The notes: a model not told the origin generated them from the sequence alone. A stretch of DNA of 58,673 nt from Clostridia bacterium (GCA_017399105.1 JAFQEJ010000018.1:1-58673), one strand, 5' to 3'. Positions 3,755-46,898 are shown, counted from the stretch's first letter. A program made the numbers and translations.

Positions 3755-3755
3755 C

Positions 3756-9793: not shown

Positions 9794-12514
9794 ATGAAAA
9801 AAGTATGTACATCGGGTATCGCGCTGATTCTTGTTTTGCTCATGCTGTTGCTTGCAGGATGTGAGAGTGATACAGGCAGTGATGAAACAGAAGCAGAAAC
9901 AGATACCGTTGCTTCGGTCAGCAGCGAGGTTGACATTACCGGCTACAAGCTGATGAGAAGCGATGTAAGCTCGGACGAGGTGCGTGACAGCTATGTTCTG
10001 GTCAAGAAGATGGCACGGGAACTCTGCGGCGTTGAGCTGGAAGTGGGCACCGATTATAAATCGGAGGATCCTGCCAACCGTACCGAAAAGGAGATCATCA
10101 TCGGTCATACCAATCTTCCCGAGGAAAATGCTGTTTACGAAACGCTTGCCGAGGGAGAGTATGCGATCACACAGAGCGGCAGCAAGATCATTATTGTCGG
10201 TTATACCGACACGGAGACCGTTTATGCCGTCAACCGTTTTCTGGAGCTGACTATGGGATACAATAAGGATAAATATGAAAATCAGCCGATCGGTACATCG
10301 GTGCTGAATATTCCCAACGAGAAGCAGGCAGTTGAAATGCCGTCGTTTGAATCAGGCAGAGTGATTTCTGCTATTCCCGCGATGACAAGTGAAGTTATGA
10401 AGTCTTCCGAATTCAAGCTGAACGGCTGTAAGAAGGAGGGCGACAATATTCACTGGACGAATACCGGTACGGCGGTGGCTGATATCGACACGGGAGAAGG
10501 AAGCTTCCGTATAGAATTTACGGTGGATATCGAAGGCGAAAATATGCCTACCATACAGTTATTTACATATTTTAATAATGCGGAGCATATCTGCATCGGT
10601 ATTTCGGACAGCTTTGTGCGTATCGGAAGAGCGACCTATGAGCGCGGCGGAGCCAATTTCACGGGTGACACCAAGCACTATACCTTCCGCATGGATGTAC
10701 ATCCCGACTCGGGGCGCATGCAGTATTTTGTGAATGGAAAATTCCTCGGCGAGATGAATATTGGTGAGGCGGATGATCCGCTGACCGCTCACTCCAACTT
10801 TGCGCTGGCAGCAGTCGGCGACAAAATTGATGTAACGATTTCGGATATCCGCTGGGAAAACATCGATGACATCGGAGAGAGACGCTACGATGCGCCCAAG
10901 GTGCTGACTGCTGCTGACGATATCTATCCCAAGTCGGAGAAGGCGCCCGGCGATGTGATTTATGTGGTTGAAGGTACAACAGCGTCCAATGAGAATCTGT
11001 TGACCATCGCGACTCTGCAGGGAAATGTCAATCGCACAACCCCCGAAATTTTTATGGATTACCGCAACTACAATCTTGACCACCATCATATGAATATTGT
11101 GGAAGAAGAGGCTTATATTGAGATCCTTCGGCAGAAGGGCAGAACGGTGGAAAACGCCGATATAGAGGAGCTTCTTGTCAAGTATGCTGACCGATACAAA
11201 GGTGTTATTGTGGGAGATGCCTTCGCTACCGTATATGGTGAGAATGTGGTTACCTCTCTTTGCGGTGTGCTTGATGCAGTATATCTGACAGAAAAGCAGT
11301 ATGAGTCGCTGAAAAAACAGATCAAAAAGGATGTGCTTTTCCGCATTGATGCCTATTGGGAATCTCCGGTAGATGCATATATGTGGGTATGGAATACTTA
11401 TGGAGATCTGTTCTCGGATAACATTCTCTTCCATACGCCTTCTATGATTGAGCAGACCGGTCACAATTCAAGAGCATGCCGTGATTATGCGGTCATGTCA
11501 CGTGCTTTTACCTTCTATACACATGGCGTTGAATGTGTGGAGGACTATGATTTTTATATGAATCTGTTTGCCACACGCGCCGCCAACTCGGGCATTGTCG
11601 GATTCGGCGGAGGATGCTTCCCCGAATTTGAGATGTTCCAGGTGGCAGGTCAGTTTGCCAAGTTCTGGACTTACGGTTTCTCCACACCGAACATGTCGCT
11701 TTTCAACAGTCTTGAAGTAGGTGAGCTGAAGCAGAAAGCTCCCACATCGGGTGTACAGCTTGAGAATGATACGGTGTATGTAGCATTTGATATGTCGGAA
11801 GGTGACAATCTGTCCTGGAACTATCACCTTTGGGCACAGAATTTTTCCAATGAAGCAGGACGTGCTGCTTATCCCAAGGGATACTCGCTTTGCGGTGCGC
11901 TCTATTATGTTGCACCTGCACTGATTGAGTATTTTTATGATATTGCTACGGTTAACGATTACTTCTTCCTTGACGGCGGAAGCGTTTCCAATGTGGGATC
12001 ACCCGATTCATATGCTCTGATGTACAAGGATGATGACCGTGAAGTGATCATGAAAGAGATGCTCTCGGTGCTCAATCATGTCTGTGAGAAAACTGATATA
12101 ACTGTTCTTCGTGCGATCAACAATATTTCGGATGAAATGACTCTTAGATTTGATGAAGCCTGCCCCAAGATTACGGCGCTGTTCTCTTCCTACGGTAACA
12201 CAACCTATTCTACCGGCGGAAGCGGAGGAAAATATGCGGATTCTATTAAAATGGTGGGTGATATGGTACGTGTGCGCTGTCATTTGACCAATTTCCAGGC
12301 GGATCTCGGGAAACAGCTTAAAACGCTCGCCAAGCAGGTTAAATCGGATGATGGCATTGTTTTTGCAAAGACCTTTATATATGCAAATTCGGTACTTTAC
12401 GATATTGCAGATCTGAAGAAATATACCGATGAGCTGGAATCTTCGGGTAAGACGATCGTCTATGTGCGTCCCGATGAATATGCGGCGCTCTACAGAGAAT
12501 ACGCATCAAGATAA
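9794..12514 (+). CDS. Large lipoprotein A (906 aa) of unknown function, with a shared ~100-aa N-terminal module
   Basis: Signal peptide with LAGC lipobox, then a Ser/Thr/Glu-rich linker. Residues ~50-160 align with the N-terminal modules of lipoproteins B and C (Y.l..SD...EI.IG.TN....YAVNrFLE). The remainder has no recognisable catalytic motif. Confidence 0.6.
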   Translation: MKKVCTSGIALILVLLMLLLAGCESDTGSDETEAETDTVASVSSEVDITGYKLMRSDVSSDEVRDSYVLVKKMARELCGVELEVGTDYKSEDPANRTEKEIIIGHTNLPEENAVYETLAEGEYAITQSGSKIIIVGYTDTETVYAVNRFLELTMGYNKDKYENQPIGTSVLNIPNEKQAVEMPSFESGRVISAIPAMTSEVMKSSEFKLNGCKKEGDNIHWTNTGTAVADIDTGEGSFRIEFTVDIEGENMPTIQLFTYFNNAEHICIGISDSFVRIGRATYERGGANFTGDTKHYTFRMDVHPDSGRMQYFVNGKFLGEMNIGEADDPLTAHSNFALAAVGDKIDVTISDIRWENIDDIGERRYDAPKVLTAADDIYPKSEKAPGDVIYVVEGTTASNENLLTIATLQGNVNRTTPEIFMDYRNYNLDHHHMNIVEEEAYIEILRQKGRTVENADIEELLVKYADRYKGVIVGDAFATVYGENVVTSLCGVLDAVYLTEKQYESLKKQIKKDVLFRIDAYWESPVDAYMWVWNTYGDLFSDNILFHTPSMIEQTGHNSRACRDYAVMSRAFTFYTHGVECVEDYDFYMNLFATRAANSGIVGFGGGCFPEFEMFQVAGQFAKFWTYGFSTPNMSLFNSLEVGELKQKAPTSGVQLENDTVYVAFDMSEGDNLSWNYHLWAQNFSNEAGRAAYPKGYSLCGALYYVAPALIEYFYDIATVNDYFFLDGGSVSNVGSPDSYALMYKDDDREVIMKEMLSVLNHVCEKTDITVLRAINNISDEMTLRFDEACPKITALFSSYGNTTYSTGGSGGKYADSIKMVGDMVRVRCHLTNFQADLGKQLKTLAKQVKSDDGIVFAKTFIYANSVLYDIADLKKYTDELESSGKTIVYVRPDEYAALYREYASR

Positions 12515-12637
12515 AAATAACATGAATATCACAAGACCCGGCGGATATCACATCTGTCGGGTTTTGTTATGGCATATTTGTATAAAAAATACAGTTGAAA
12601 TTCAGCATTATGACTAATTTAAAGTTAAAATGAAATG

Positions 12638-12666
12638 TTGACAATGTTAGATTTGTGTGATATAAT
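12638..12666 (+). promoter_or_regulatory. Perfect consensus promoter TTGACA-17-TATAAT for the DeoR gene
   Basis: gTTGACAatgttagatttgtgtgaTATAATgca. Confidence 0.55.
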
Positions 12667-12693
12667 GCAATTAGAATAAAATGGAGAGTGAAT

Positions 12694-13431
12694 ATGAATA
12701 CACGCCAGCAGGACATTATCAGCTTACTTGAACAGCGCGGGGAGATGACCATCAAATCGCTTGCCGAGACCTTCGGTGTCACCGAGATGACCATTCACCG
12801 CGATCTTGATTATCTGGAAAAGAAGAACTATCTATTTAAAAAGCGCGGTGCCGCTGTTTTTGTCAACAGCCATGACAGAGAAAGCCGCAGCTTTTATGCG
12901 GATGAAAAACGCAGCATCGGACAGAAGGCAGCCGAGCTGATCAAACCCGGTCAGTCAATTCTCTTCGACAACAGCACAACAGCACTTGAAACAGCGCGTT
13001 TTCTTGATGGAATCGCCGGGCTGACTTTCTATACCACCAATCTGGAAACCGCGGCAATTCTGGCAAAATACCCGAATACCATCATGTACTGCAGCGGCGG
13101 ATATTATTTTCCCGATTCCAAGGGTTTTATCGGAAAACAGACAGAGACATTTGTGGAGAGCATTCATGTGGATCTTTGTGTGATTGGTGCCAGCGGTATC
13201 GATATTGAGCACGGTATCACAGGTCCATATCCCATGCACACTGCGCTTCAGCGCAAGATTATCGATGCAGCCGATTACCGTATTCTTACAGCCGATCATT
13301 CCAAGTTCGGAAAGGCAGCCATTGAAAAGATTGCCGATCTTGACGAGATTGACTGCATTGTTACCGACAGCGGTATTCGGCCTGAGATTTCGGAGGAATA
13401 CGGAAAGCATACGCGAATCATTCTGGCGTAG
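12694..13431 (+). CDS. DeoR/GlpR-family transcriptional regulator
   Basis: N-terminal DeoR HTH (IISLLEQRGEMTIKSLAETFGVTEMTIHRDLDYLEK) and a C-terminal DeoRC sugar-phosphate sensor domain. GGAG sits 7 nt before the ATG. Confidence 0.85.
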   Translation: MNTRQQDIISLLEQRGEMTIKSLAETFGVTEMTIHRDLDYLEKKNYLFKKRGAAVFVNSHDRESRSFYADEKRSIGQKAAELIKPGQSILFDNSTTALETARFLDGIAGLTFYTTNLETAAILAKYPNTIMYCSGGYYFPDSKGFIGKQTETFVESIHVDLCVIGASGIDIEHGITGPYPMHTALQRKIIDAADYRILTADHSKFGKAAIEKIADLDEIDCIVTDSGIRPEISEEYGKHTRIILA

Positions 13432-13531
13432 GTTAAACAGTAAACAACAGCACGGGACTGTTGAAATAAAATCAATTCTTGGAAAGGATGGGTGCATCAT
13501 GAATTCCCGCTGTCATGATGCAGAGATTCAC

Positions 13532-15025
13532 ATGAAAAAATCATTGTTAAAGCCGCTTTCTTCTTTGATCTTGGCAGCGCTGATGATGCTTGGATCCTTT
13601 GCGGCATGTTCAACAGAAGATGGAGGAGCGCAGACTCCTTCGGACGACACAGCGGTCGATCAGACTGCAGCTGATACAACTGCGGCTCCCGAAGAGACCG
13701 AGCTTGTTTATGCAGCCGACATTCCCTCGGGAACCAACTATAACGGCTATAACTTCCGCGTTGCGGTTGCCGATCTGACCACCATTGTCTGGTGTGATAC
13801 CGACTTTTCGATCCTTGAGCCTTCGGCGGATATTGTAGAAAATGCCGTTTATGAACGTAAGACCAAGGTTGAAGGTCAGCTCGGTGTGGAAATCACTCCG
13901 GTTTACTATCTGGGCGACGTTGCAAATGAAATGAGCAAGAGCATTCAGGCGGATGAAAATGCTTTTGATATCGGTTTTGCACCTCCTAAATTTTCGGGTG
14001 CGAGAACGACTGAGGGCTGGTTCCTTGATCTGAATAATTTCCCCAACATCGATCTGAGCGATCCCTGGTGGGATCAGAACTCGGTGGAGGATCTTTCAAT
14101 TAAGGGAAAGCTCTTTACCGTTGCTGGTGATATCGGATATAACTATAAGCGTTCGACTTCGGTGCTTTTCTTCAACAAGAAACTCATCGAGACTAAGCAG
14201 CTGGAGAATCCCTATGATCTGGTTAACAACAATCAGTGGACACTGGATAAGCTTTTCGAGATGGCAGACAACATTTCGGAGGATCTGAACGGTGACTCTG
14301 CAATTTCTCCTGCCGACGACCTGTACGGATTTGCAAACTGTCCCGATACGCTCAATCAGATGATGGTGGGTGCCGGTGTCAATGTTACTGAGTTTGATTC
14401 GGAGGGTACACCCACACTCTGCTTCATGGATGAACGGACTACCTCTGTTTTTGAGAAGATCACCACATTTATTTACGATGATGCCAAGTCCTTTAACTGG
14501 GAGGCTGTCGGCGTCAATGCAGGTACCAAGTTTACCAATGACCAGCTTCTCTTTATGCCTACCGAATTCTGGGTTATTACAACCTATCGCGATATGGCGA
14601 CCGATTTCGGTGTGCTTCCCATGCCCAAGTATGATGCATCTCAGGAGAACTACGGACATATCGTTAACGCTCATGTCGCAGCACTGCTCATGATTCCCAG
14701 AACCAACACAGACAATAATATGACCGGTCATGTGGTTTCTGCGCTTGGTGCTGAGGGAAAGAATCTTATCACTCCCGCATATTATGAGGTTGCGCTCAAG
14801 ACCAAGATGTCCCGCGATACCGAGTCTGAGGCGATGTTTGACATTATTTTTAATTCGATCGACTGGAACGCAGGTGTAATTTACAACTGGGGCGGCTTTA
14901 TGGATACCACACGCAGCATGGTTGGTGCTAAGAATACCGATATCGCTTCTACATACGAGCGTATGGTGAAGCGAATCAACAAAGATATCGAGAAGGTACT
15001 CGAGGCATACAGCAAGCTTGGTTGA
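13532..15025 (+). CDS. Large (~497 aa) extracellular solute-binding lipoprotein (LplA-like ABC SBP family), orphan
   Basis: MKKSLLKPLSSLILAALMMLGSFAACS lipoprotein signal and an Asp/Thr/Ala-rich linker. It is the right length and composition for a family-1 large SBP. An alternative start lies at 13499. No permease or ATPase genes are nearby. Confidence 0.6.
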   Translation: MKKSLLKPLSSLILAALMMLGSFAACSTEDGGAQTPSDDTAVDQTAADTTAAPEETELVYAADIPSGTNYNGYNFRVAVADLTTIVWCDTDFSILEPSADIVENAVYERKTKVEGQLGVEITPVYYLGDVANEMSKSIQADENAFDIGFAPPKFSGARTTEGWFLDLNNFPNIDLSDPWWDQNSVEDLSIKGKLFTVAGDIGYNYKRSTSVLFFNKKLIETKQLENPYDLVNNNQWTLDKLFEMADNISEDLNGDSAISPADDLYGFANCPDTLNQMMVGAGVNVTEFDSEGTPTLCFMDERTTSVFEKITTFIYDDAKSFNWEAVGVNAGTKFTNDQLLFMPTEFWVITTYRDMATDFGVLPMPKYDASQENYGHIVNAHVAALLMIPRTNTDNNMTGHVVSALGAEGKNLITPAYYEVALKTKMSRDTESEAMFDIIFNSIDWNAGVIYNWGGFMDTTRSMVGAKNTDIASTYERMVKRINKDIEKVLEAYSKLG

Positions 15026-15026: not shown

Positions 15027-17234
15027 ATGAAAAAACGCATCACGGCACTGATTATCGCATGTTTTCTTCTGCTGTGCTCCTGTGACAGTGGAATACAGCA
15101 GGAGACGCTCTCCGACACACTTCTGATATCCGAGGCTGAAACCGAGCTGCCGAAGCTTTCACTTGACGGCTATACGGTGGTGATCAGCGGCGATGCTTCC
15201 GAGCGCGAGAGTGAAGCGGCGAAGGCACTGTACCTGGCGCTGGGGGAGGTTTGTGAGGGAATTGCGCTCTCGGACGATTTCGACGGCAAGCAGGACAACA
15301 CCGGTCGGGCAGAAATTCTTGTGGGCGCGACCAACCGTCCTCAGTCACAGGCTGCACTGGTGGAGTGCGGTGAATTTGAGTTTATTATCCGCAGTGCGGA
15401 GAACAAGCTTGTCATCGCGGCAAAGCGTCCTGAAACTATCGAATATGCGGTGAATTATTTTCTTGAGCACTGTACTGTTCGAGGCAGCGTTGACCAATCG
15501 ATGTCAATACTGCTCTCATATACAGAGCTTGAGGGGATTGAAGCCTACGATTATAATGAGGTTTATAATATGAACTGCACCCGTCCTACCGAAGATATTG
15601 TCTATCCCAGAAGTGATCTTCAGGCATCGCTTGTCGAAACCGAAACACGCAGTGTTTCGAAATCCGACATTTATACCGGCGGCCCTCAGTTTATCGCGAA
15701 GCTTTATACAGAAGCGCTCTCCCGCTCGCCTTCCGGTGAAGAATTTGCTGATGCCACAGCACGAATCTCCGAGAAGGGTTGTACAGTGGAAACACTGACA
15801 GCTTTGGCATATGAGATTTTTGCTTCGGATGAATATAAAAATCACAATCTCACCCGGGAAGAATCCTGCTTCACCCTCTACCGTGCCATCTTCTCACGCG
15901 ATCCTTCGCTTGAAGAGTTGGAGACTTTTGGAGGAAATGCCGCAGACTCTGTGTCATCGCTTACTGCGAGTGATGAGTTTGCGGATATGATGCAGGGGAT
16001 TATCGAAGGACCGTACTTCTGGGGCATTAATCAGGAAGAGGTCTATACAGGAAGTAGCGTGATTCTCGCATCGCAGCTTCAGAAGCAGATCTCAAACTAT
16101 ACTGTGACCAAGCTGCCGCAGGGAACGCTGGTGCTTATGGATACGGTGCTGGTGCTTCCAACGGGTGCAATGCTTGTCACTGAGGGGGAACCGACACATT
16201 ATGCGAAGATGGCGCGCTTTCTGCGACCGGCAGAGAAGGGAAGCCATCACCATCTGATTCAGATGGGAGAAGAATGTGAGATCAAGTCGATTTTTATTGA
16301 CGGCAATATGTCGGCATTTGAGCTCAATGAAACTGCAAACGGAAGCAATACCGTGATTACGGGAAGCTACTGCAATGTTACATACTGCCGCGTGTCCGAT
16401 TCCACCAGCCACCAGAATGTATGGGCGTTGGACGGCACAAGCGAGATGTACATCGCACATAATCTGATCACCGGTTATGCATCCGATCACAATAAGACCT
16501 GGCAGGACGGTATTTCCTGTCTGGCAACCGGATCGGTCATCGAGTACAATGATATCGTCGATACGACAGACGGTGCGATTGCGGTGTTCCGTTATATCGA
16601 AAACTATGCGGCATACGATCATATCCGGGCGCAGAATTCGATCATTCGTTATAACAACATCTTCAATGCAGGTAATTCCGCTTATGTTGCACATGACTAC
16701 GAGACGGTGAATTATTTTAAGATTGGCAATCCTCCTGAATATCCTGCCAATATGACCGGACTTGTCAGCTATGAAAATAACATCTGGACATCCTGGAGAG
16801 CGCATTATCATATGGTGGTTACCTTCTCTACGGTACCGTGGCAGGGACCTGTGGTCAATGACCGTGCCATCGGCGGTTCCTTCTATAACAATTCCTCACC
16901 CGACGGATGCTTTGCGCTCTGTGCCTGCGGAATCAATGTGGACAAGGTTACCGATGCGGCGGTACGGGGCAACAGCTTTCTCTTCTATCTCGGTGACTGG
17001 TGCCGATCTGCGCCGGGAGTGGGAGCTCGTGCATACAGCATCAATGAGGAGAACAGCGGCGGCGACTTCCAGGCTGGCTATGTGAATATGCCGATTGCAA
17101 CAGAGACTGCGACCTTCATCAACACTCTTGCAGGAGGGCTGACGCTGGAGGCTGCCGATACGGTTGAGCTGCAGGGATGGAAGCTGACCGAGGGAAAGGT
17201 GACCATTCCTCTGGAACGCTTTCAGGCAGAATAG
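15027..17234 (+). CDS. Lipoprotein B: shared N-terminal module + DUF4214-like repeats + right-handed beta-helix + C-terminal Cys cluster
   Basis: MKKRITALIIACFLLLCSCD lipobox. The N-module aligns with A and C. Two repeats resemble DUF4214 (FIAKLYTEALSRSPSGEEF.., CFTLYRAIFSRDPSLEEL..). Beta-helix rung-like repeats follow (NLITGYASDH.., EYNDIVDTTDGAI.., IRYNNIFNAGNSAY), then CFALCACGIN...DWCRS. Its ATG at 15027 lies 1 nt after the SBP stop. Confidence 0.55.
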   Translation: MKKRITALIIACFLLLCSCDSGIQQETLSDTLLISEAETELPKLSLDGYTVVISGDASERESEAAKALYLALGEVCEGIALSDDFDGKQDNTGRAEILVGATNRPQSQAALVECGEFEFIIRSAENKLVIAAKRPETIEYAVNYFLEHCTVRGSVDQSMSILLSYTELEGIEAYDYNEVYNMNCTRPTEDIVYPRSDLQASLVETETRSVSKSDIYTGGPQFIAKLYTEALSRSPSGEEFADATARISEKGCTVETLTALAYEIFASDEYKNHNLTREESCFTLYRAIFSRDPSLEELETFGGNAADSVSSLTASDEFADMMQGIIEGPYFWGINQEEVYTGSSVILASQLQKQISNYTVTKLPQGTLVLMDTVLVLPTGAMLVTEGEPTHYAKMARFLRPAEKGSHHHLIQMGEECEIKSIFIDGNMSAFELNETANGSNTVITGSYCNVTYCRVSDSTSHQNVWALDGTSEMYIAHNLITGYASDHNKTWQDGISCLATGSVIEYNDIVDTTDGAIAVFRYIENYAAYDHIRAQNSIIRYNNIFNAGNSAYVAHDYETVNYFKIGNPPEYPANMTGLVSYENNIWTSWRAHYHMVVTFSTVPWQGPVVNDRAIGGSFYNNSSPDGCFALCACGINVDKVTDAAVRGNSFLFYLGDWCRSAPGVGARAYSINEENSGGDFQAGYVNMPIATETATFINTLAGGLTLEAADTVELQGWKLTEGKVTIPLERFQAE

Positions 17235-17252
17235 ACTAAACAATCATTCAGA

Positions 17253-17290
17253 AAGGGCTTAAAGAAAACAAACTTTAAGCCCTTATTTAT
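17253..17290 (+). terminator. Hairpin between the two paralogs
   Basis: AAGGGCTTAAAG-aaaacaaa-CTTTAAGCCCTT followed by ATTTAT. Confidence 0.6.
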
Positions 17291-17307
17291 ACGAGGTGAT
17301 TTATTCA

Positions 17308-18966
17308 ATGAAATTCTTACGTCCCACATCGGATATTGTCTACCCCAAGAGCGATATCATTTCCTCTCTTACAAAACACGAGAGCATCAGCGTTTCCAAG
17401 TCGGATATTTACACCGGCGGCCCGCAATTTATCGCCAAGCTGTATACCGAGGCGCTCTCCCGCTGTCCTACCGGTGCAGAATTTGCTGATGCAACCGCTC
17501 ACATCAAGGAACAGGGCTGCACCAAGAAAATGCTGGCGGTGCTTGCCTGCGAGATCTTCAGCTCGGATGCGTATCAGAAGGCGGCACTGACCCGCGATGA
17601 AATATGCTTTACCCTCTACCGTGCGATTCTCTCCCGTGATCCAATGGGGGAAGAGCTTGCTTCCTTCAACGGTGATGCTGTGACTGCTGTAAAGGCACTG
17701 ATTGCGGGTGCTGAGTTTGATGCATTGATGGAGGGGATTATTAAAGGTCCCTACTTCTGGCATGGAACCAACTACGAGTGCTATACGGGATCGCAGGTGA
17801 TGCTTGCTTCCGAGGTACAGAAGCTGCTGAGACCGGATACGGTCACCGCACTTCCGCAGGGGACGCTTGTGATTGTTGATGAAACGATCAATATGCCCAT
17901 CGGTGCCAAGCTGATCACTGAGGGAGAGCCGACCCATTACGCCAAGATGGCGCGTTTTCTGCGTCAGCGTGATACCGAAAAATATTATGATCTTCTCAGA
18001 CTCAGCGACAGCTGCGATATCCGCTCAATTTTCGTGGACGGCGCGCTTTCGGAATATCATGACAAGCTGATTCCTCCGACTCCTGTGATGGTGCTGGGCA
18101 ATTCAACCTCGGTGACAGACTGCCGTGTGTCCGATTCGATCAGCAGCGTGAATATTTTCATCGGTGCACAGCATGATGTTTATATTGCCCGCAATTTGAT
18201 CACCGCTTATGCTTCGGATCATGATCGAACCTGGCAGGATGGCATCCATAATAAGGCTTACGACGCGCTGATCGAATATAATGAAGTTGTAGATTCGACC
18301 GATGCGCCGATTGTGACCTTCCGTTATTTGCTGAATACACCCGATTACGATCACAAGCGGGCGCAAAATTCGATCATCCGCTTCAATAAGATTTTCAATG
18401 CGGGTAATTCTGCCTACTGTGCGCATGATTTTGAGACAGTGCATTATCTGAAGGTAGGACAGTCTGCCAAGGACGATGCTAATATGACAGGGCTTGTCAG
18501 CTATCATAATGAAATATGGTCATCCTGGCGCGCGCATTTTCACATGATTGCAACCTTCTCTACCGTGCCGTGGCAGGGCTCGGATAATAACGATATGGCA
18601 CATGGAGGTTCCTTCTACAACAATTGCACACCAGAGGGATGCTTTGCCCTCTGTGCCTGCGGAATCAATGCAGATAAGGTCCAGAATGCGGCAATTCGCG
18701 GCAACCGCTTTACCCTATATCTTGGTGATTGGTGCCGTTCCGATCCGAGATTGGGCAAAAGAGCCTACAGCGTGCACGCTGATAACTGCAGCGGTGATTT
18801 TCAGCCGGGATATAGTGATATGGCGATGTATACAGAGAAGGAGACCTTTATTATTAATCTGATTGGCGGACTGCAGCTTGAAGCTGAGGACAGCGTTTTA
18901 CTTGAGAGATGGGAGCTTTGCGAGGGCAGAGTAACCATTCCGATCGAGCGTTTTATGTCAAGATAA
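17308..18966 (+). CDS. Signal-less paralog B' of lipoprotein B (DUF4214-like + beta-helix + Cys cluster)
   Basis: About 60% identity to residues ~185-738 of B over its full length. No hydrophobic N-terminus (MKFLRPTSDIVYPKSD...). GAGGTGA sits 8 nt before the ATG at 17308. Confidence 0.55.
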   Translation: MKFLRPTSDIVYPKSDIISSLTKHESISVSKSDIYTGGPQFIAKLYTEALSRCPTGAEFADATAHIKEQGCTKKMLAVLACEIFSSDAYQKAALTRDEICFTLYRAILSRDPMGEELASFNGDAVTAVKALIAGAEFDALMEGIIKGPYFWHGTNYECYTGSQVMLASEVQKLLRPDTVTALPQGTLVIVDETINMPIGAKLITEGEPTHYAKMARFLRQRDTEKYYDLLRLSDSCDIRSIFVDGALSEYHDKLIPPTPVMVLGNSTSVTDCRVSDSISSVNIFIGAQHDVYIARNLITAYASDHDRTWQDGIHNKAYDALIEYNEVVDSTDAPIVTFRYLLNTPDYDHKRAQNSIIRFNKIFNAGNSAYCAHDFETVHYLKVGQSAKDDANMTGLVSYHNEIWSSWRAHFHMIATFSTVPWQGSDNNDMAHGGSFYNNCTPEGCFALCACGINADKVQNAAIRGNRFTLYLGDWCRSDPRLGKRAYSVHADNCSGDFQPGYSDMAMYTEKETFIINLIGGLQLEAEDSVLLERWELCEGRVTIPIERFMSR

Positions 18967-19065
18967 GGAAAATCTGACAACGTTTTTGACCGATTGGAAT
19001 TGACAAAAAGATCAAACAGCGGTATAATAATGAAAATTGAGTTCATAGTAAGGAAGGATTTGCCT

Positions 19066-20694
19066 ATGAGAAGATTTTCTGTTATACTGCTGTTTTTCTG
19101 TCTTTTGTGGGGATTGATCTCCTGCGGCGAGTCATCGTCAGATGGCACGGAAAGCGAAATACCACCTGATCATGCACAGCCGGTCGTTGAAAAGTTCTAT
19201 CAGATTGTGCGCTCGGATGATTCGAGCAAGACGCTGACAAGTGCAGCGGTGGCATTGAAAAACGCGATTCGTGATAGGGCAGGCTATGATATTGTGCTGA
19301 CCACCGACTGGGACAAAAATCCGGTTGAGGAATACGAGATTCTGATCGGTGAGACCCTTCGAGCTGAGTCGGATGTTGGTGAGCTTGATGCTTCCACCTT
19401 TGTTGTGCGTGAAGTCGGAACAAAAATCGTTATCACCGGCGGCAGTGAAAATGCTGTTATCGCAGGTATCAATTACTTTATTGAGGAGTATGTGAATAAA
19501 ATGGAGAATACAGGAAAGTTTGCACCCCCCACGGGGATCGATGTGAGCGATTCAACGCTCAACCGTCTGCTTGCTCTGAAAACAGATGGATCCTCCAAGA
19601 AGAAGGCATACAGCGATTACATCAAAACATACACCGAGAAGCAGCTTCTCAGCTTCGATGATCTGGATACAAAGAGCCTTCGTACAGCAGATGGCGTGGA
19701 GATCGACTCCACTTATATGCGCGAAGGCAGTGGTGCCATGCGCTGGACTTTGGATAAGGATTACAATGATCTTGTACAGATGATGCAGGTTTCTCGCAAT
19801 GCCTTTGAATTTGCGGTAAAGGATAAGAGAACGACTACATTGAAATTCTGGCTCTTTATCAATGATACCGATCTGATATCCTGCGACCATGATTCTCAAT
19901 ACGGAATCCAGGAGAATCAGGCAACCTTCTTCATCCGTGTGACCGACAAAAACGGACGTACTTACTGCTGGAATCATACCATCACCGATAACGGCTGGCA
20001 CGAAATTGAGCTTTCCTTCAATGTACACAACGGTGTTGATGCCGATTTTGATTATGATCACATCACCGGCTTTTGGATCATGTTCTCGGGTAAAGCTGGG
20101 GCGGTTGTAGAACTGGACGACCTGCGTGCTGTGGAATATACAACCGATTACAAGCCCGAGGCAGTTCCCGCTGAATGGCGCGTGATTACAGATGCGGAAT
20201 ATGATGCGCTTGATGGTGCGATTGTCCAGGAATGGTACGGTACATATTACGATACTGAGGATAAGGTACAGGGCAAGTCTTCGCTTTGCTGTGAAGGTGA
20301 TGCTTCGGTTAATGATTTCCGTTTGATCATTGCAAACACCAGTATCCCCCTGGATTATGATCAGGATGTGCTGGTTTTCTGGATGAAACTGGAGAAGTTT
20401 GCTTCCTGCAATGGACTCTTCCTTGAGCTGAATCATGTACAGGATCAGCATGAGTATGAGAAGTCGGTTTCTCTGGATGAACTGAAGGCATACGGTCTTG
20501 ACAAGGAAAACGAATGGTGTCAGGTTGTCATTCCGCTCACCGATTTCAAACAGAATCTGAAGCCCGATGTATACGGCAAGGGCGAGGATATTGTGATGCA
20601 GAATTTTCGCTTTGTTATGAATCCTGTTTCCGGTATGGATTATAAAGTTCATATGGATCGCGCATATTTTACCACAAAGGATGCGCTGAATTGA
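19066..20694 (+). CDS. Lipoprotein C: shared N-terminal module + two putative beta-sandwich (CBM-like) domains
   Basis: MRRFSVILLFFCLLWGLISCG lipobox; AGGAAGGA sits 7 nt before the ATG at 19066. The N-module aligns with A and B. The C-terminal half is Trp/aromatic-rich and strand-like (KFWLFINDTD..., VLVFWMKLEKF...). Confidence 0.5.
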   Translation: MRRFSVILLFFCLLWGLISCGESSSDGTESEIPPDHAQPVVEKFYQIVRSDDSSKTLTSAAVALKNAIRDRAGYDIVLTTDWDKNPVEEYEILIGETLRAESDVGELDASTFVVREVGTKIVITGGSENAVIAGINYFIEEYVNKMENTGKFAPPTGIDVSDSTLNRLLALKTDGSSKKKAYSDYIKTYTEKQLLSFDDLDTKSLRTADGVEIDSTYMREGSGAMRWTLDKDYNDLVQMMQVSRNAFEFAVKDKRTTTLKFWLFINDTDLISCDHDSQYGIQENQATFFIRVTDKNGRTYCWNHTITDNGWHEIELSFNVHNGVDADFDYDHITGFWIMFSGKAGAVVELDDLRAVEYTTDYKPEAVPAEWRVITDAEYDALDGAIVQEWYGTYYDTEDKVQGKSSLCCEGDASVNDFRLIIANTSIPLDYDQDVLVFWMKLEKFASCNGLFLELNHVQDQHEYEKSVSLDELKAYGLDKENEWCQVVIPLTDFKQNLKPDVYGKGEDIVMQNFRFVMNPVSGMDYKVHMDRAYFTTKDALN

Positions 20695-25651: not shown

Positions 25652-26680
25652 TTAAAGCTGATCTGCGAGATCATAAATGAGATGTTCGGTCTTCTCCCAG
25701 CCGAGACAGGGATCGGTGATTGATTTGCCATAGATATGCTCACCGATTTTCTGGCAGCCGTCCTCAATGTAGCTCTCGATCATAAGACCCTTTACAAGCT
25801 TCTTGATATCGTTATTGTGGCGGCAGCTGTGGAGAATTTCCTTAGAGATACGAATCTGCTCGAGATAATTCTTGCCCGAGTTTGAGTGGTTGGTGTCAAC
25901 AATCAATGCGGGATTTTTCAGCTCGGAGCGATGGTAAGCGTCAGCGAGCTTGGCAAGATCTTCATAGTGATAGTTGGGGAAGGAATTGCCGCGCTCATCC
26001 ACATAGCCGCGGAGAATAGCATGGGTGTAAGGATTACCCTCGCTCTGAACCTCCCATCCGCGGTAGATGAAGGTGTGCGAATGCTGTGCGGCGAAGATCG
26101 AGTTCATCATAACCGAGAGGTCGCCGCTGGTGGGATTCTTCATACCAACGGGGATATTGAGACCGCTGGCGGTCATGCGGTGGTGCTGATCCTCAACCGA
26201 ACGCGCACCGACTGCTACATAAGCGAGCAGGTCGTTGAGATAGCGGTGATTTTCGGGATAGAGCATTTCTTCCGCACAGCTGAAGCCGCTTTCCTTCAGA
26301 GCGCGCAGATGAAGCTCGCGGATGGCAATGATGCCTTTGAGCAGATCGGAGCGTCCTTCGGGGTTGGGTTGATGAATCATACCCTTGTAGCCTTCGCCTG
26401 TGGTGCGGGGCTTACCGGTGTATATGCGGGGGATGATGATGATTTTATCTTCTACCTTATCCTGCACCTTGCGCAGACGGGAGATGTAGTCGAGCACGCT
26501 GTCGGCAGAATCTGCAGAGCAGGGACCGATGACAAGAAGGAACTTTTCCGACTCGCCTGTAAAAATTTTCTTGATTTCCAGATCGCGGGCAGCCTTGATT
26601 GCCGCATATTCTTCGGGTACCGGATATTCCGCCTTGATGTCCATAGGAATGGTCAGCTTGCGGATAAAATTCATATTCAT
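25652..26680 (-). CDS. aroF: 3-deoxy-7-phosphoheptulonate (DAHP) synthase, class I
   Basis: 342 aa with the IYTGKPRTTGEGYKG motif. Confidence 0.85.
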   Translation of the reverse strand: MNMNFIRKLTIPMDIKAEYPVPEEYAAIKAARDLEIKKIFTGESEKFLLVIGPCSADSADSVLDYISRLRKVQDKVEDKIIIIPRIYTGKPRTTGEGYKGMIHQPNPEGRSDLLKGIIAIRELHLRALKESGFSCAEEMLYPENHRYLNDLLAYVAVGARSVEDQHHRMTASGLNIPVGMKNPTSGDLSVMMNSIFAAQHSHTFIYRGWEVQSEGNPYTHAILRGYVDERGNSFPNYHYEDLAKLADAYHRSELKNPALIVDTNHSNSGKNYLEQIRISKEILHSCRHNNDIKKLVKGLMIESYIEDGCQKIGEHIYGKSITDPCLGWEKTEHLIYDLADQL

Positions 26681-26701
26681 AAGTCAATATCTCCCTTGCT
26701 A

Positions 26702-27565
26702 TTAATTAGGTTTCTTGTCGAAGAGGGCACGGCGTGCGGTGGAATAACGCATCATTTCGCGCATTCCTTCGGCATCGTCGTCCTCAATCATGATTTTCAG
26801 TCTATCAAGCTCACGCTGGAAGAGATTCATCTGCTTGAGCAGTGCTTCCTTGTTGAGTAAGAATAGCTCGCTCCACATCTCATCGTTCAGGCGTGCAATT
26901 CTTGTCAGATCACGGAAGGAGTCGCCGGTGTAGTCCTCCAGATGCTCGGTTTGCTGGCAGGTCATCAGCGATACCGCGATACAGTGGGTGAGCTGGGAAA
27001 CGAAGGCGATGATTTCATCGTGATCGTCGGGCGAAAGACGGGATACGCGGGCAAATCCCAATACATTACCCAGATCCTCGCATAATTCGATGGCATCGGG
27101 GGTGTTTCTCTCGGACGGGGTTACCACATAGTTGGCACCGCGGAAGATGGAGTCATCACTGTTTTTGACACCGCTGACCTCGCGTCCTGCCATCGGATGA
27201 GCTGCGATGAATTCCACATCGGGACGCAGGATGCTCTGAATTTCAGAGACGATACAGCCCTTGACACCGGTGACGTCGGTGATGACAGCTCCCGGCTTGA
27301 AGAGGTCTTGATGCTCCTTCACCCAGTCAAGGAAAATATGAGGATAAAGGGCGAACACGATGAGATCAGCCTCACCGACGAGTGCAGGATCGACACTTGC
27401 TGCACCTGCAGTGATCATGCCATCCTCCATGGCGAAATCGATGGAGGACTGACTGCGTGTAATCGCCGTGACGCGGTAGCCCTTTTTGGTCAGTGCCTTT
27501 GCATAGCTTCCGCCCAAAAGACCGAGACCGACGATGAGAATATTCATATCTTTGGTAAGCTTCAT
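26702..27565 (-). CDS. tyrA: Prephenate dehydrogenase
   Basis: NAD-binding ILIVGLGLLGGS and a PDH domain. Confidence 0.85.
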   Translation of the reverse strand: MKLTKDMNILIVGLGLLGGSYAKALTKKGYRVTAITRSQSSIDFAMEDGMITAGAASVDPALVGEADLIVFALYPHIFLDWVKEHQDLFKPGAVITDVTGVKGCIVSEIQSILRPDVEFIAAHPMAGREVSGVKNSDDSIFRGANYVVTPSERNTPDAIELCEDLGNVLGFARVSRLSPDDHDEIIAFVSQLTHCIAVSLMTCQQTEHLEDYTGDSFRDLTRIARLNDEMWSELFLLNKEALLKQMNLFQRELDRLKIMIEDDDAEGMREMMRYSTARRALFDKKPN

Positions 27566-28788
27566 TTTATAATTGCCTCCGCTCCGAGAGAATTGAGTAA
27601 TGTAAAGTAATCGGGCAGACTCTTTGAAACAGCCTGTGCGTCGTCGATTCTGCCGCCTGTGACCGTAAGAAGAGTGGCAAGTGCCATAACAATGCGGTGA
27701 TCGTTGTGCCCGTGAAGCAGCTCATCCGGAGCATGGAACGCTTCTGGAATCACGCGAATGGTGTCCTCCTCAAGCTCGGCTTTGACGCCGAATTTTGCAA
27801 GCTCGGCTGCCATAGCAGTACCGCGGTCGCTTTCCTTGATCTTAAGCCGCTTCGTACCGGTCAATGTGATGCCATGCTTTGCAGCAGCCAGAGCCATAAA
27901 AATTGGCCCGAGGTCGGGACAGTCGCCGATATGAACGGTGGGACAGCCGCTCGCAATCTGCGGGAAGATCGTGCGGTAAATGCGGTCACCCTGAAGGCTG
28001 TTTTCATTGAGTCCTGTTACGCTGACATCATGACCGAGGCAGGGAAGTGCCTCAAAAAATGCGGTGTTGGAGTAATCACCTTCAACCGAAACATCGGCGG
28101 GGGTGTATTGCTGATTTCCCGCTATCGAGATGGTATGATGATCGCTCCAATTCACACGGATGCCAAAGAGCGCGAGGGCGGCGATTGTCATGTCAATATA
28201 GGATCTGCTTTCAATCGGTTCACTGATTGAAAGAATGCTGTCATTATCCAAAAGGGGGAGCGTGAAGAGCAATCCTGTGATAAACTGACTGCTGATATTG
28301 CCTGCGATCTCATAAACACCTGCGCTGAGCTTGCCGCCGACCTCGATTGCACCGTCTTTGCGGATAAAGGTCAGCTTCTGTTTGACGCAAATTTCCTCAT
28401 AAACGCTTTGAGGACGCTCCATGAGGCGGGGCGAGCCTGTCAGTGTGAAATGTTCATCCTTAGCTGCGGCTTCGTCGGAGACCATGCAGAGGGGAATCAT
28501 GAATCTCAGCGTACTTCCGCTTTCACGGCAGGCCAGGGAGGCAGCCGGCTTTGCCTTTCGCAGATCAGTGCCGCGAATTTCAACTGCGCTGCCCTTTTTG
28601 GTACAGCTTACACCGAGAGCAGTGAGGGCATCCAGCGTGGCATGCATATCCTCTGAGTCGGAGATTCCCTCGATGTGGGAGATTCCGTTGGCAAGAGCTG
28701 CGCAGATCATCATGCGATGTCCCATACTTTTTGATGGCGGTGCCTGGATAATGCCCTTCAGCCTGGCGGGCTTAATTTCTGCAATCAT
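27562..28788 (-). CDS. aroA: 3-phosphoshikimate 1-carboxyvinyltransferase (EPSP synthase)
   Basis: 408 aa with APPSKSMGHRMMICAALANG near the N-terminus. Confidence 0.9.
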   Translation of the reverse strand: MIAEIKPARLKGIIQAPPSKSMGHRMMICAALANGISHIEGISDSEDMHATLDALTALGVSCTKKGSAVEIRGTDLRKAKPAASLACRESGSTLRFMIPLCMVSDEAAAKDEHFTLTGSPRLMERPQSVYEEICVKQKLTFIRKDGAIEVGGKLSAGVYEIAGNISSQFITGLLFTLPLLDNDSILSISEPIESRSYIDMTIAALALFGIRVNWSDHHTISIAGNQQYTPADVSVEGDYSNTAFFEALPCLGHDVSVTGLNENSLQGDRIYRTIFPQIASGCPTVHIGDCPDLGPIFMALAAAKHGITLTGTKRLKIKESDRGTAMAAELAKFGVKAELEEDTIRVIPEAFHAPDELLHGHNDHRIVMALATLLTVTGGRIDDAQAVSKSLPDYFTLLNSLGAEAIIK

Positions 28789-29231
28789 GCCTGAGCCTTC
28801 TTTCCTGTGTGTTCGATCAGAAGATCCAGCGCTTCGAGATAGCCCTTTGTACCGTGCCCCGAGATGGTGGCGATGCAGGCGGCGCGGATGTAGCTGACCT
28901 GACGGAAATCTTCGCGGGAGGATAGGTCAGAGATATGTACCTCGACAGTGGGGGTCATAACCGATTTGACCGCATCAAGGATGGCGATGCTTGTATGTGT
29001 ATAGGCTCCGGGATTGATGATAATGCCGTCATAGGCGTTATAGGTAGACTGGATGTAATCCACCAGATCACCCTCGTGATTGGACTGACGGAAGGAAACC
29101 TCAACGCCGCGCTCGGCAGCGTAGGATTCAATTTTGGCAGTCAGCTGTGCATAAGTTTCGCTGCCGTAATGTCCTGGCTCGCGGATGCCCAGCATGTTCA
29201 GATTGGGACCATTGATGACCATGAATCTCAT
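28785..29231 (-). CDS. aroQ: 3-dehydroquinate dehydratase, type II
   Basis: 148 aa with MRFMVINGPNLNMLGIREPGHYG. Confidence 0.9.
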   Translation of the reverse strand: MRFMVINGPNLNMLGIREPGHYGSETYAQLTAKIESYAAERGVEVSFRQSNHEGDLVDYIQSTYNAYDGIIINPGAYTHTSIAILDAVKSVMTPTVEVHISDLSSREDFRQVSYIRAACIATISGHGTKGYLEALDLLIEHTGKKAQA

Positions 29232-32618: not shown

Positions 32619-32629
32619 AATGAACCTTC

Positions 32630-45971: not shown

Positions 45972-45978
45972 TATTAAA

Positions 45979-46024
45979 GGGACTGACATAAACTTCCGAA
46001 ACGTCAGTCCCTCGTATTATTTTG
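45979..46024. terminator. Bidirectional terminator between blaR1-like 1 and mntP
   Basis: GGGACTGAC-15nt-GTCAGTCCC with T-rich flanks. Confidence 0.7.
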
Positions 46025-46028
46025 GTTA

Positions 46029-46610: not shown

Positions 46611-46630
46611 GATATACTCCAAAATGTAAT

Positions 46631-46800: not shown

Positions 46801-46805
46801 CAGCT

Positions 46806-46834
46806 ATTATAACACAAACGGGGAGGCTTGTCAA
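46806..46834 (-). promoter_or_regulatory. Perfect consensus promoter TTGACA-17-TATAAT driving the mntP leader
   Basis: Minus-strand sequence ctaTTGACAagcctccccgtttgtgtTATAATagc. Confidence 0.6.
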
Positions 46835-46850
46835 TAGCGAAAGAAGATGA

Positions 46851-46890: not shown

Positions 46891-46898
46891 TTAATCAT

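Follow-up and report, generated by a model that had tools for sequence, protein, structure and literature searches.

The locus described here, from a gut Clostridia bacterium, raises the question of why a lipoprotein gene (B) should be followed directly by a shorter copy of itself (B') that encodes no recognizable export signal. The answer toward which we lean, with moderate confidence, is that B is an exported glycan depolymerase and B' a conserved cytoplasmic paralog, the two dividing their labor within one DeoR-controlled operon. Both genes lie in the window, by which we mean the whole 58.7-kb stretch of DNA that was analyzed.

15027..17234, plus strand: gene B, a 735-aa lipoprotein with signal peptide, accessory domain, DUF4214-like region, and beta-helix
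17308..18966, plus strand: gene B', 552 aa, a predicted complete catalytic core without signal peptide and without accessory domain

The two open reading frames were found as the earlier note had described them, and its estimate of about 60% identity agrees with the BLASTP alignment (329 of 554 positions identical, 59%, with 2 gaps), for which B was taken from the ATG at 15027 and B' from the ATG at 17308. Residues 182 to 735 of B align with residues 1 to 552 of B'; the range of 185 to 738 given earlier for B denotes the same residues, numbered from a TTG start. The genes are in different reading frames, the 73-nt spacer between them has stops in all three frames, and independent gene callers arrived at the identical 552-aa B' product in seven public contigs. 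On this alignment, B and B' are the products of a partial tandem duplication.

The copies differ at their N termini, where B carries two elements.

15027..15083, plus strand: lipoprotein signal peptide of B (MKKRITALIIACFLLLCSC, lipobox LCS/C), assigned from lipobox and hydropathy
15084..15569, plus strand: linker and N-terminal alpha/beta accessory domain of B; B' lacks both

Lipoproteins were recognized by a positive n-region, a hydrophobic h-region, and a lipobox [LVI][ASTVI][GAS]C within about 35 residues. B, which begins with MKKRITALIIACFLLLCSC and continues with D, has all three (MKKR, ITALIIACFLLL, and CS/C), with a peak 11-residue hydropathy of 3.24 at residue 7. The Cys at position -2 of its lipobox is atypical; the same motif is present in the orthologs P0003 and P0004, and P0005 has a classical A-V-S-C. 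In the first 60 residues of B' the peak hydropathy is 0.75, and this segment has no lipobox, no RR motif, and no signal peptide, so that the predicted contrast between a lipoprotein and a copy lacking an N-terminal export signal is borne out by hydropathy and lipobox. An upstream in-frame start that would supply B' with a signal peptide was also sought, but the frame is closed by a TAA at 17260-17262, and a signal peptide therefore cannot be added. Hydrophobic N termini were found in 52 of 58 aligned family members and in about 116 of 141 further representatives; by this count the family is normally exported. A cytoplasmic location for B' is what we infer from the missing N-terminal signal, which is no proof of it.

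Beyond the N terminus, both copies are predicted to share the same architecture, for which the AlphaFold2 (AF2) model of B' (pLDDT 94, pTM 0.94) and the family alignment provide the following features.

17422..17745, plus strand: helical DUF4214-like region of B' (residues 39-146), from AF2 secondary structure
17797..18927, plus strand: right-handed parallel beta-helix of B' (residues ~164-540), from the AF2 model
18043..18267, plus strand: B' residues 246-320, holding 21 of 33 lineage-specific fixed replacements
18640..18735, plus strand: Cys motifs of B' (C445, C449, C451, C476), with clade-specific conservation

The modeled beta-helix has three sheets and 8 or more rungs, as expected of a pectin-lyase-like fold, and it carries the invariant residues T299, Y301, D311, G312, D329, Q353, N360, G366, and N401 together with the near-invariant W309, D332, H410, and W422. 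The DUF4214-like and beta-helix content noticed earlier is upheld by this model, by homologs, and by a weak Pfam match: PF13946 (DUF4214) scores 17.5 bits on B against a cut-off of 23.2 and gives no match to B' at E ≤ 0.01. Homology of this region to DUF4214 is nonetheless likely given that 35 of 58 family members match PF13946 (best E value, 2e-19). Pfam otherwise returned only a sub-threshold Disaggr_assoc match for B and B', and NCBIfam returned nothing; a family profile searched against PDB sequences at E ≤ 10 found only weak phycobilisome-linker matches in the DUF4214 part and no beta-helix enzyme, and Foldseek against the PDB gave only generic beta-helix matches (TM ≤ 0.54). In the literature, no paper was found that joins DUF4214 to a beta-helix, a polysaccharide lyase, or such an enzyme; the DUF4214 papers were unrelated. 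The family comprises about 650 clusters at 50% identity (E ≤ 1e-30) and occurs in Clostridia from ruminant and human guts as well as in culturable Paenibacillus. We regard it as an uncharacterized beta-helix and DUF4214 family and a candidate new glycanase family.

An invariant Cys cluster had also been proposed. The motifs GCFALCACGIN and DWCRS are indeed present in both copies, but across the family they vary: C445, C449, C451, and C476 occur in 28, 19, 18, and 22 of 29 Clostridia-clade members, and in the 29 remote members all four are replaced nearly throughout, most commonly by Ile/Gln/Leu, Val, Thr/Ser, and Ser/Gly, respectively, with a single Cys remaining, at position 449. Such substitutions are typical of positions in a buried beta-helix core and not of ligands, and family conservation leads us to reject the suggested metal site. 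Because the cluster is not conserved, the argument that disulfides would be odd in a cytoplasmic copy retains little weight.

That B' is not a decaying duplicate, as the earlier note held, is supported by the syntenic locus L005, where the gene order is unchanged and B' again has 552 aa (90% identical; dN, 0.05; dS, 0.76-0.78): dN/dS is 0.06-0.07 for B', lower than for B in the same comparison (0.09-0.10), and 0.03-0.08 for neighboring genes. L005 is unbiased for B' because it was found through its B ortholog; the strain L002, with 10 synonymous and 0 non-synonymous B' differences, was retrieved by exact protein match, a bias for which L005 was used instead. Compared directly, B and B' are saturated (dS, 1.58), so an omega of ~0.2 is uninformative. 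All 13 of 13 family-invariant residues are kept in B', as are the four near-invariant ones; every invariant residue is present in both copies and omega is below 0.1, and both may be catalytically competent. By these estimates, B' is under strong purifying selection.

This constraint is accompanied by divergence from the exported enzymes. All three B' sequences carry fixed replacements at 33 positions where the 8 nearest exported homologs do not vary; these cluster at residues 246-267, 280-288, 314-320, and 379-405. G257P and N259P, within the 246-320 segment, and T405S, downstream of it, alter sites whose conservation among the compared exported members of the Clostridia clade is 96-100%. B' keeps 83% of homolog-invariant positions, versus 94-99% for 7 of 8 homologs in leave-one-out controls. 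Lying near the catalytic candidates, these fixed replacements most likely reflect neofunctionalization of B'. B' is absent from a second syntenic locus, L006, which has B, and it is therefore dispensable in a close relative. In the tree, B' falls outside the B/P0003/P0004 clade on a branch longer than that of B; the gap in L006 may reflect loss there or a later duplication followed by acceleration.

The surroundings of the pair indicate how it might be expressed and on what it might act.

9794..12514, plus strand: 906-aa lipoprotein with a B-type N-terminal accessory domain and GxGYxYP putative glycoside hydrolase domains
12638..12666, plus strand: sigma-70-type promoter consensus (TTGACA-17-TATAAT with TG, 12/12 match)
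12694..13431, plus strand: DeoR-family regulator, 245 aa (Pfam HTH_DeoR and DeoRC, E values 1e-14 and 1.6e-43)
13499..15025, plus strand: SBP-like lipoprotein, ~500 aa (weak, sub-cut-off SBP_bac_1 match, E value 5.8e-5)
17253..17285, plus strand: B/B' intergenic hairpin, 13-bp/12-bp stem, 8-nt loop, weak T-run after
17293..17300, plus strand: RBS of B', GAGGTGAT, 7 nt 5' of the ATG
19000..19028, plus strand: second perfect sigma-70-type consensus, 5' of lipoprotein gene C
19066..20694, plus strand: lipoprotein C, 542 aa, with an N-terminal accessory domain as in B

The accessory domain of B thus opens two further lipoproteins of the locus, 9794-12514 and 19066-20694; in the former it was seen by alignment, and Pfam GxGYxYP_C matches with an E value of 5.9e-21. 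The DeoR gene is retained in L005, and the gene for lipoprotein C is present in L001-L003 and L005 and missing from L006. The SBP-like gene stops 1 nt ahead of the B start, has a dN/dS of 0.04 against L005, and encodes a protein 58% identical to that of the gene lying upstream of P0005 in L007; across lineages, B-type genes keep this partner. Among the scanned ORFs of ≥150 aa in the window there is no sugar ABC permease (BPD_transp_1); the SBP-like gene is an orphan, leaving the import step without identified machinery in the window.

Both the hairpin and the strong RBS reported earlier are real, the stem pairing 17253-17265 with 17274-17285 (minimum free energy of the intergenic RNA, -18.9 kcal/mol; z = -4.7; 0 of 200 shuffles fold as well). 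The L005 spacer has another sequence, yet it forms two hairpins at the equivalent place (dG, -43.8; z, -8), and a terminator-like hairpin occupies the equivalent position in the independent L037 pair. Both are more terminator-like than the hairpin at 17253-17285, on which a scan for intrinsic terminators (a GC-rich stem, then a T-run of 5 or more in 8 nt) was silent, its tail ATTTATAC having 4 T. Independent expression of B' is not supported as it had been put: no promoter-like site was found near 17100-17290, promoter-like counts in the region equal the shuffle expectation, and the hairpin-to-RBS gap of only 7 nt leaves no room, so that a promoter of its own is rejected. A TTGAGG-17-TATAAT match inside B (15529-15557), overlapping the internal Shine-Dalgarno (SD)-like sequence described below, was also set aside as probably a by-product of AT-rich Asp/Tyr/Asn codons. 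Most simply, B' is the last gene of a DeoR-SBP-B-B' transcription unit and the hairpin is an attenuator or stabilizer; the consensus at 12638..12666, 5' of the DeoR gene, is likely the promoter of this unit, and that at 19000..19028 likely marks its 3' limit.

Signal-less copies are not confined to this pair. In L037 the second copy, signal-less, directly follows the lipoprotein copy, with a GCCGG...CCGGCTTTT hairpin between them, and in Paenibacillus baekrokdamisoli (L018) one directly follows a secreted multi-domain copy; L024 and L025 hold single signal-less copies. In a neighbor-joining tree, signal-less copies were monophyletic in 0 of 100 bootstraps, and B grouped with B' in 80 of 100. 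By this reconstruction the signal peptide was lost at least four separate times in the family, in two cases in a tandem copy preceded by a hairpin, which amounts to a naturally replicated experiment on recruiting exported enzymes to the cytoplasm. In L024 the signal-less copy closes a series of genes for SBP_bac_1, two BPD_transp_1 permeases, and an SBP-like lipoprotein, a setting in keeping with a cytoplasmic role; the unrelated genes on either side of the L037 pair weigh against the reading we favor. Substrate clues diverge: the Paenibacillus pair is adjoined by UxuA and SDR, the B-type genes in L073 and L010 by GH32, and the window has GH2 and GxGYxYP.

A possible origin for the start of B' lies within B itself.

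15558..15572, plus strand: SD-like GAGGT (Glu-Val codons), 7-nt spacer, and ATG (Met182) in B, a candidate internal start

Met182 (ATG 15570) sits exactly where B' begins, at the boundary of accessory domain and core, and the in-frame reading upstream of B', Y-E-V-I-Y-S-M, parallels N-E-V-Y-N-M in B; the internal GAGGT and ATG likely gave rise to the RBS and start codon of B'. The motif E-V-x-[NT]-M-x-[CF]-x-R-P occurs in B-type genes of the seven contigs examined, covering P0002 to P0008, each gene has at most one in-frame ATG with a 5-mer SD besides that of the boundary Met, and GAG is used for the motif Glu even where it accounts for just 12-28% of the codons for this residue. Taken jointly, these features have a probability of ~0.005, an estimate that is post hoc and drawn from few, partly related lineages. 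B-type genes might accordingly be dual-product genes in which GAGGT/GGAGGT and the Met let one mRNA also yield a cytoplasmic isoform that lacks the signal, with B' the duplicated, specialized outcome; we offer this tentatively and think it rather unlikely, but if true it would be a compact means of having the same enzyme on either side of the membrane.

We propose the following course of events for the pair. The paralogy, the missing signal peptide, the fold, the selection, and the repeated appearance of such an arrangement are shown by the results above, and from them we infer where B' resides, that the two proteins are enzymes, what they act on, what the hairpin does, and how labor is divided. 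The ancestral gene would have encoded a surface-tethered, glycan-depolymerizing enzyme with a DUF4214-like helical module and a pectin-lyase-fold beta-helix. B would be exported by Sec and lipid-anchored at Cys19, its GH20b/GH67N-type accessory domain holding it off the membrane. B' would be the bare catalytic core, beginning at the Met that marks the domain boundary in B and using as its RBS the GAGGT that encodes Glu-Val there; starting at this Met, without an export signal, it would stay in the cytoplasm. Since its catalytic candidates are all intact and several adjacent rungs remodeled, B' most likely takes the substrate of B in another form, presumably as oligosaccharides that B releases outside, the co-transcribed SBP-like lipoprotein captures, and the cell imports. 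The hairpin most likely lowers or stabilizes the transcript, so that the two enzymes would be made in different amounts.

B' might instead act outside the cell as a free enzyme beside tethered B, having left by a non-classical route (lysis, vesicles, an unrecognized signal, or piggy-backing). We judge this unlikely. In its favor, the family is overwhelmingly exported, no permease adjoins the operon, and Cys number 15 in B' and 11 in the core of B. Against it, conservation of the Cys positions is lacking, neither a hydrophobic segment nor a lipobox nor a twin-arginine motif is present in B', and the signal was lost at least four times, in one case within an ABC importer operon, which would be hard to account for if export were still needed. 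The signal of B, moreover, is of the Sec/lipoprotein type (MKKR..., no RR), and Tat hitch-hiking is therefore not available. Quite unlikely, too, is a cytoplasmic but non-hydrolytic B', either a binding or sensor protein reporting import to DeoR or an epimerase-type modifier of a cytoplasmic glycan or precursor; the invariant polar residues Y301, D311, D329, D332, Q353, N360, N401, and H410 are all kept, which argues for chemistry like that of exported members, and other signal-less copies sit in catabolic contexts (ABC importer, UxuA).

Two readings deny B' a function or a separate existence. As a truncated, functionless duplicate, a young pseudogene-like remnant still open, B' would explain the missing two parent modules, its absence from L006, and a branch longer than that of B, but omega over a dS of ~0.8, tighter than for B, contradicts this, and we reject it as very improbable; the identical length and start in L005, the L002 differences (biased by retrieval), the retained invariant residues, and the strong RBS also speak against it. 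An annotation artefact, with B' starting upstream or joined to B through read-through or a frameshift, and so carrying an export signal, has the short spacer and nothing else in its favor and is scarcely credible: the TAA at 17260 and the three-frame stops between the B stop and the B' ATG reject it, the frames differ, and the 552-aa call recurs in the 7 contigs and in L005, whose spacer differs in sequence. An exported B with a cytoplasmic B' remains our preferred reading.

Comparison with known enzymes helps to place the family. PsAly, a PL31 alginate lyase of 298 residues from Paenibacillus sp. FPU-7 (PDB 6kfn), shows 15% identity in structural alignment and is without a DUF4214 module; the family profile misses 6kfn at E ≤ 10, so PL31 membership by sequence is rejected. 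The GH28 polygalacturonases 1bhe and 1k5c and the mannuronan C5-epimerase AlgE4 (2pyg) show 9-14% identity. No Glyco_hydro_28 match was obtained for B/B' (E ≤ 1) or the 58 members (E ≤ 0.01), GH28 signature motifs are not recognizable in B/B', and no Pfam family match links B/B' to GH28 or AlgE4-type enzymes. To DUF4214 (PF13946) proteins the likeness is a weak match in B and a region that is helical in the AF2 model, with B and B' below the gathering score. The family is without sequence link to CAZy-type families or the literature, and Paenibacillus offers accessible test organisms.

An exported depolymerase with a cytoplasmic paralog follows a familiar logic of Gram-positive glycan foraging, and the split in localization alone is unsurprising. 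XT6 and IXT6 of Geobacillus stearothermophilus form one such extracellular/intracellular pair. Another is found in Caldicellulosiruptor kronotskyensis, where Xyn10A is extracellular (secreted and multi-modular), Xyn10B is intracellular, and the GH10 domain is common to both (PMC4761950). Like such pairs, B and B' have a putative catalytic domain in common at moderate identity; again as in such pairs, predicted exported B combines signal peptide and accessory modules and B' is a bare core, and the two lie in a regulated sugar-utilization locus with a solute-binding lipoprotein. The window has only the SBP-like lipoprotein and no permeases, whereas in L024 the signal-less copy lies inside an ABC importer operon, as in pairs with oligosaccharide import. 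Unlike the GH10 pairs, B and B' are adjacent, from a partial tandem duplication, and their predicted fold is a beta-helix, not a TIM barrel, in an uncharacterized family; what is new is the familiar outside/inside arrangement in an unstudied enzyme family.

B and B' are tandem paralogs, as the earlier note had claimed: both ORFs are present on the same strand, residues 182 to 735 of B align with residues 1 to 552 of B' at 59% identity (329/554, BLASTP) with only two gaps, and a stable hairpin lies between them.

Genes and signals of the B/B' region
9794-12514, gene of a 906-aa GxGYxYP lipoprotein
12638-12666, sigma-70 consensus promoter (TTGACA-17-TATAAT, 12/12) upstream of the DeoR gene
12694-13431, DeoR regulator gene
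13499-15025, gene of a solute-binding-protein-like lipoprotein (SBP), upstream of B
15027-17234, forward strand, lipoprotein gene B, ATG 15027 to stop 17234, 735 aa
15558-15572, Shine-Dalgarno (SD)-like GAGGT (Glu-Val codons) 7 nt 5' of an internal ATG (15570) of B, at the domain boundary
17253-17285, hairpin between B and B', -18.9 kcal/mol, z -4.7
17293-17300, ribosome-binding site (RBS) of B', GAGGTGAT, 7 nt 5' of its ATG
17308-18966, forward strand, signal-less paralog B', ATG 17308 to stop 18966, 552 aa
19000-19028, sigma-70 consensus promoter (TTGACA-17-TATAAT, 12/12) upstream of gene C
19066-20694, lipoprotein gene C, 542 aa

The N-terminus of B (MKKRITALIIACFLLLCSC, then D) combines a charged n-region with a hydrophobic core, of mean hydropathy 3.24, and a lipobox-like LCS/C; that of B' (MKFLRPTSDIVYPKSD) reaches at most 0.75 in any 11-mer of its first 60 residues. 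A TAA at 17260 closes the B' frame upstream of its ATG and the B/B' spacer contains stops in all three frames, which excludes both a longer, signal-peptide-bearing form of B' and a read-through B/B' fusion; the alternative GTG at 17296 falls within the B' RBS. Gene callers report the identical 552-aa product in seven public contigs. The proposal that the two proteins differ in localization is a reasonable reading of a lipoprotein-type signal in B and none in B', and from the missing signal we infer a cytoplasmic location for B'.

Locus L005 (GCA_053312775.1, another lineage) was retrieved via its B ortholog, P0003, and is thus unbiased as to B'. Its gene order is that of the window (GxGYxYP lipoprotein, DeoR, SBP, B, B', C, AI-2E transporter, AraC, GH2), and its B' opens with the same MKFLRPTSDI. 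The two B' proteins share 90% amino acid identity (dN 0.05, dS 0.76 to 0.78, omega 0.06 to 0.07), compared with 85% identity and an omega of 0.09 to 0.10 for B and an omega of 0.03 to 0.08 for four neighboring genes. All 13 invariant columns of a 58-sequence family alignment (E48, R105, R216, G245, T299, Y301, D311, G312, D329, Q353, N360, G366, and N401 in B' numbering) are kept in both B and B', as are the near-invariant W309, D332, H410, and W422. The low omega and the intact invariant residues exclude a pseudogene and bear out the earlier view that B' is no decaying duplicate.

B' has nevertheless been remodeled. Of 212 positions that never vary among the eight nearest exported homologs, it retains 176 (83%), versus 94 to 99% in leave-one-out controls, the exception being the most divergent homolog, P0009 (82%). 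All three B' sequences share 33 fixed replacements, clustering at residues 246 to 267, 280 to 288, 314 to 320, and 379 to 405, segments that flank the invariant G245, T299/Y301, D311/G312, and N401; among them are G257P, N259P, and T405S, which fall at positions 96 to 100% conserved in the comparison set of exported Clostridia-clade members (every aligned one but P0017 and P0027). Because these clustered, fixed replacements are combined with strong purifying selection, B' looks like the product of a completed shift in substrate subsites in which the chemistry would have been retained.

Separate expression of B', also proposed earlier, did not hold up. Two perfect sigma-70 consensus promoters lie in the region. 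Promoter-like sites are overall as numerous as expected from shuffling, and the promoter scan found no site just upstream of B'. The SBP stop is 1 nt from the B start, and the gap from the hairpin to the B' RBS is 7 nt. Given this tight spacing and the lack of a near promoter, B' is most simply the final cistron of a DeoR-SBP-B-B' unit. The hairpin failed a terminator rule (its tail has 4 T in 8 nt) and might act as a partial terminator or 3' stabilizer for the upstream part of the unit. The L005 B/B' junction contains two strong hairpins of a sequence unlike that of the window (-43.8 kcal/mol, z -8), and a terminator-like hairpin (GCCGG...CCGGCTTTT) separates the two copies at L037, a locus in a sheep-colon Clostridia MAG; a structured spacer is thus conserved, even convergent, in the paired arrangement.

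B' lacks not only the signal peptide of B but also a linker and a ~125-residue domain. This domain also opens the GxGYxYP protein and C (110 to 125 aa, alpha/beta, 27% identity), and a model of it matches accessory domains at the N-termini of GH115, GH67, GH20, and GH84 enzymes; it looks like a common module of surface lipoprotein glycanases. The three lipoproteins differ C-terminally, with GxGYxYP domains, the beta-helix core, and an unassigned 400-aa region, respectively. In family members of ~600 aa the signal peptide is followed directly by the core, which opens with R-P-x-x-D-I as B' does, so B' corresponds to the core and nothing more.

The first Met of B' aligns with Met182 of B, and every B-type gene read has GAGGT or GGAGGT at a distance of 7 nt 5' of a conserved internal Met.

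Internal SD/start region of B-type genes at related loci
L005: gatGAGGTatataacATG
L006: gagGAGGTttacaacATG
L007: tcgGAGGTaatgacaATG
L010: acgGAGGTcacgaacATG
L072: tcgGAGGTattgaccATG
L073: tcaGAGGTattgacaATG

Each B-type gene has 14 to 18 in-frame ATGs, and a 5-mer SD precedes either the boundary Met alone or the boundary Met and one other. The boundary Glu codon is GAG even where GAG makes up 12%, 19%, or 28% of the gene's Glu codons; multiplied across about five lineages, the GAG frequencies give ~0.005, a post hoc value from lineages not wholly independent of one another. The in-frame reading 5' of B', Y-E-V-I-Y-S-M, parallels N-E-V-Y-N-M of B, and on the strength of this likeness the RBS and start of B' appear to descend from internal B-type signals, an inheritance that would explain how a 5'-truncated duplicate could be translated immediately. 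That B-type genes themselves yield a short isoform from this candidate start strikes us as rather unlikely.

A scan of GTDB species representatives recovered 59 loci of this family, hosted by gut and rumen Clostridia, Selenomonadaceae, two Paenibacillus species, actinomycetes, myxobacteria, Acidobacteriota, and others. Three of the 59 have two copies: L037, with a 581-aa lipoprotein copy, 73 nt, and a 522-aa signal-less copy; Paenibacillus baekrokdamisoli (L018), with a ~1,040-aa secreted copy of three repeats followed directly by a ~520-aa signal-less copy; and Paenibacillus eucommiae (L019), with signals on both. Oscillospiraceae and Clostridiales MAGs (L024 and L025) each have one copy, signal-less and of 512 and 510 aa, respectively, and among 141 further representatives ~116 have hydrophobic N-termini and ~8 to 10 are convincing full-length signal-less forms. 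In a neighbor-joining tree each signal-less copy clusters with local exported relatives (bootstraps of 0/100 for signal-less monophyly, 80/100 for B with B', and 100/100 for a B clade without B'); because the signal-less copies scatter in this way, the signal has been lost at least four times. The L024 signal-less copy is the final gene of its operon, behind SBP_bac_1, two BPD_transp_1 permeases, and an SBP-like lipoprotein, and this context hints most clearly that signal-less members encounter their substrate after import.

Neither B nor B' matched profile libraries above threshold; 35 of 58 family homologs match DUF4214 and 6 of 58 match Beta_helix. An AlphaFold2 run on the family alignment gave a B' model (pLDDT 94, pTM 0.94) with a predicted short N-terminal strand, a helical region (39 to 146), and a long right-handed beta-helix (164 to 540). 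Its structural matches were the PL31 alginate lyase 6kfn (score 23.1), GH28 polygalacturonases (22.1 and 21.5), and the mannuronan C5-epimerase AlgE4 (21.8), followed by lower-scoring capsule depolymerases, tailspikes, PL6, GH87, GH110, and GH91; Foldseek agrees, but with weak scores, and the family profile found no beta-helix enzyme among PDB sequences. Invariant polar residues sit on consecutive rungs (WxDG, VDxTD, NxxxxxGNSxY, and NxxWxSxxAHxH), a layout that would correspond to the usual active-site groove of this fold. Based on the fold matches, the rung layout, and the lack of a profile match, the family is probably a glycan hydrolase, lyase, or epimerase outside all described sequence families. 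At E ≤ 1e-30, a full HMM search recovered 652 family representatives (50% clusters), and our literature search found no paper on the B/B' family. The DUF4214-like region (A1 profile positions ~77 to 167, B' ~56 to 146) gave weak repeated matches to REP/linker domains of phycobilisome ApcE and linker proteins (E 0.003 to 0.26), which suggests a common helical repeat fold.

The earlier note had also described an invariant Cys cluster that could bind a metal, and this did not survive comparison across the family. C445, C449, C451, and C476 of B' are common to B and present in 28, 19, 18, and 22 of 29 Clostridia-clade sequences, respectively; in 29 remote members they are nearly all replaced (a single Cys at 449), most commonly by Ile/Gln/Leu, Val, Thr/Ser, and Ser/Gly. 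Such aliphatic and small substitutions would be the pattern of a buried beta-helix core. They lend no support to a conserved metal site, and the argument about disulfides in a cytoplasmic copy loses its basis.

Genomic context gives substrate hints that disagree between lineages: UxuA (mannonate dehydratase) and an SDR lie directly upstream of the P. baekrokdamisoli pair (L018 826-2762), versus a GH32 gene overlapping the B-type gene start in L073 (1496-5187) and GH32 and GH127 nearby in L010 (2753-6171). L006 (413-3893; P0004, 742 aa), the syntenic locus in a related lineage, has SBP and B, then immediately an AI-2E transporter and GH2, without B', C, or AraC. The SBP-like protein of the window scores below the Pfam threshold, and no sugar ABC permease was found in the ORFs scanned within the 58.7-kb window.

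Several other features of the window were recorded.

Other features of the window
3107-4409, reverse strand, DsbD/CcdA-type membrane protein adjoining an AhpC/TSA-redoxin/thioredoxin-like protein, an extracytoplasmic thiol-reducing pair; beside it are an iron/cobalamin-type ABC importer (FecCD, Peripla_BP_2) and a sulfite/nitrite-reductase-like Fe-S protein
25652-33721, reverse strand, long shikimate/aromatic amino acid operon (DAHP synthase, prephenate dehydrogenase, EPSP synthase, dehydroquinase, shikimate dehydrogenase-kinase fusion, chorismate synthase, DHQ synthase, chorismate mutase-prephenate dehydratase), kept beside the locus in L001, L005, and L006
34824-36491, reverse strand, 555-aa protein carrying sigma-70 regions 2 and 4 within residues 1 to 160, extended C-terminally by a long unassigned stretch; L024 encodes a similar 541-aa protein (11495-13120, reverse strand) close to its signal-less family member
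42273-50563, two BlaR1/peptidase M56 membrane proteins (1,232 aa, forward; 768 aa, reverse) around a serpin gene
46899-48167, reverse strand, bacterial serpin gene (Pfam Serpin, E 1e-75)

What is new here is an uncharacterized DUF4214 and beta-helix family with repeated independent origins of signal-less copies and a candidate internal start. Exported enzymes paired with cytoplasmic paralogs are already known, for example the GH10 enzymes Xyn10A and Xyn10B (PMC4761950), and to that extent B and B' would follow the same logic.
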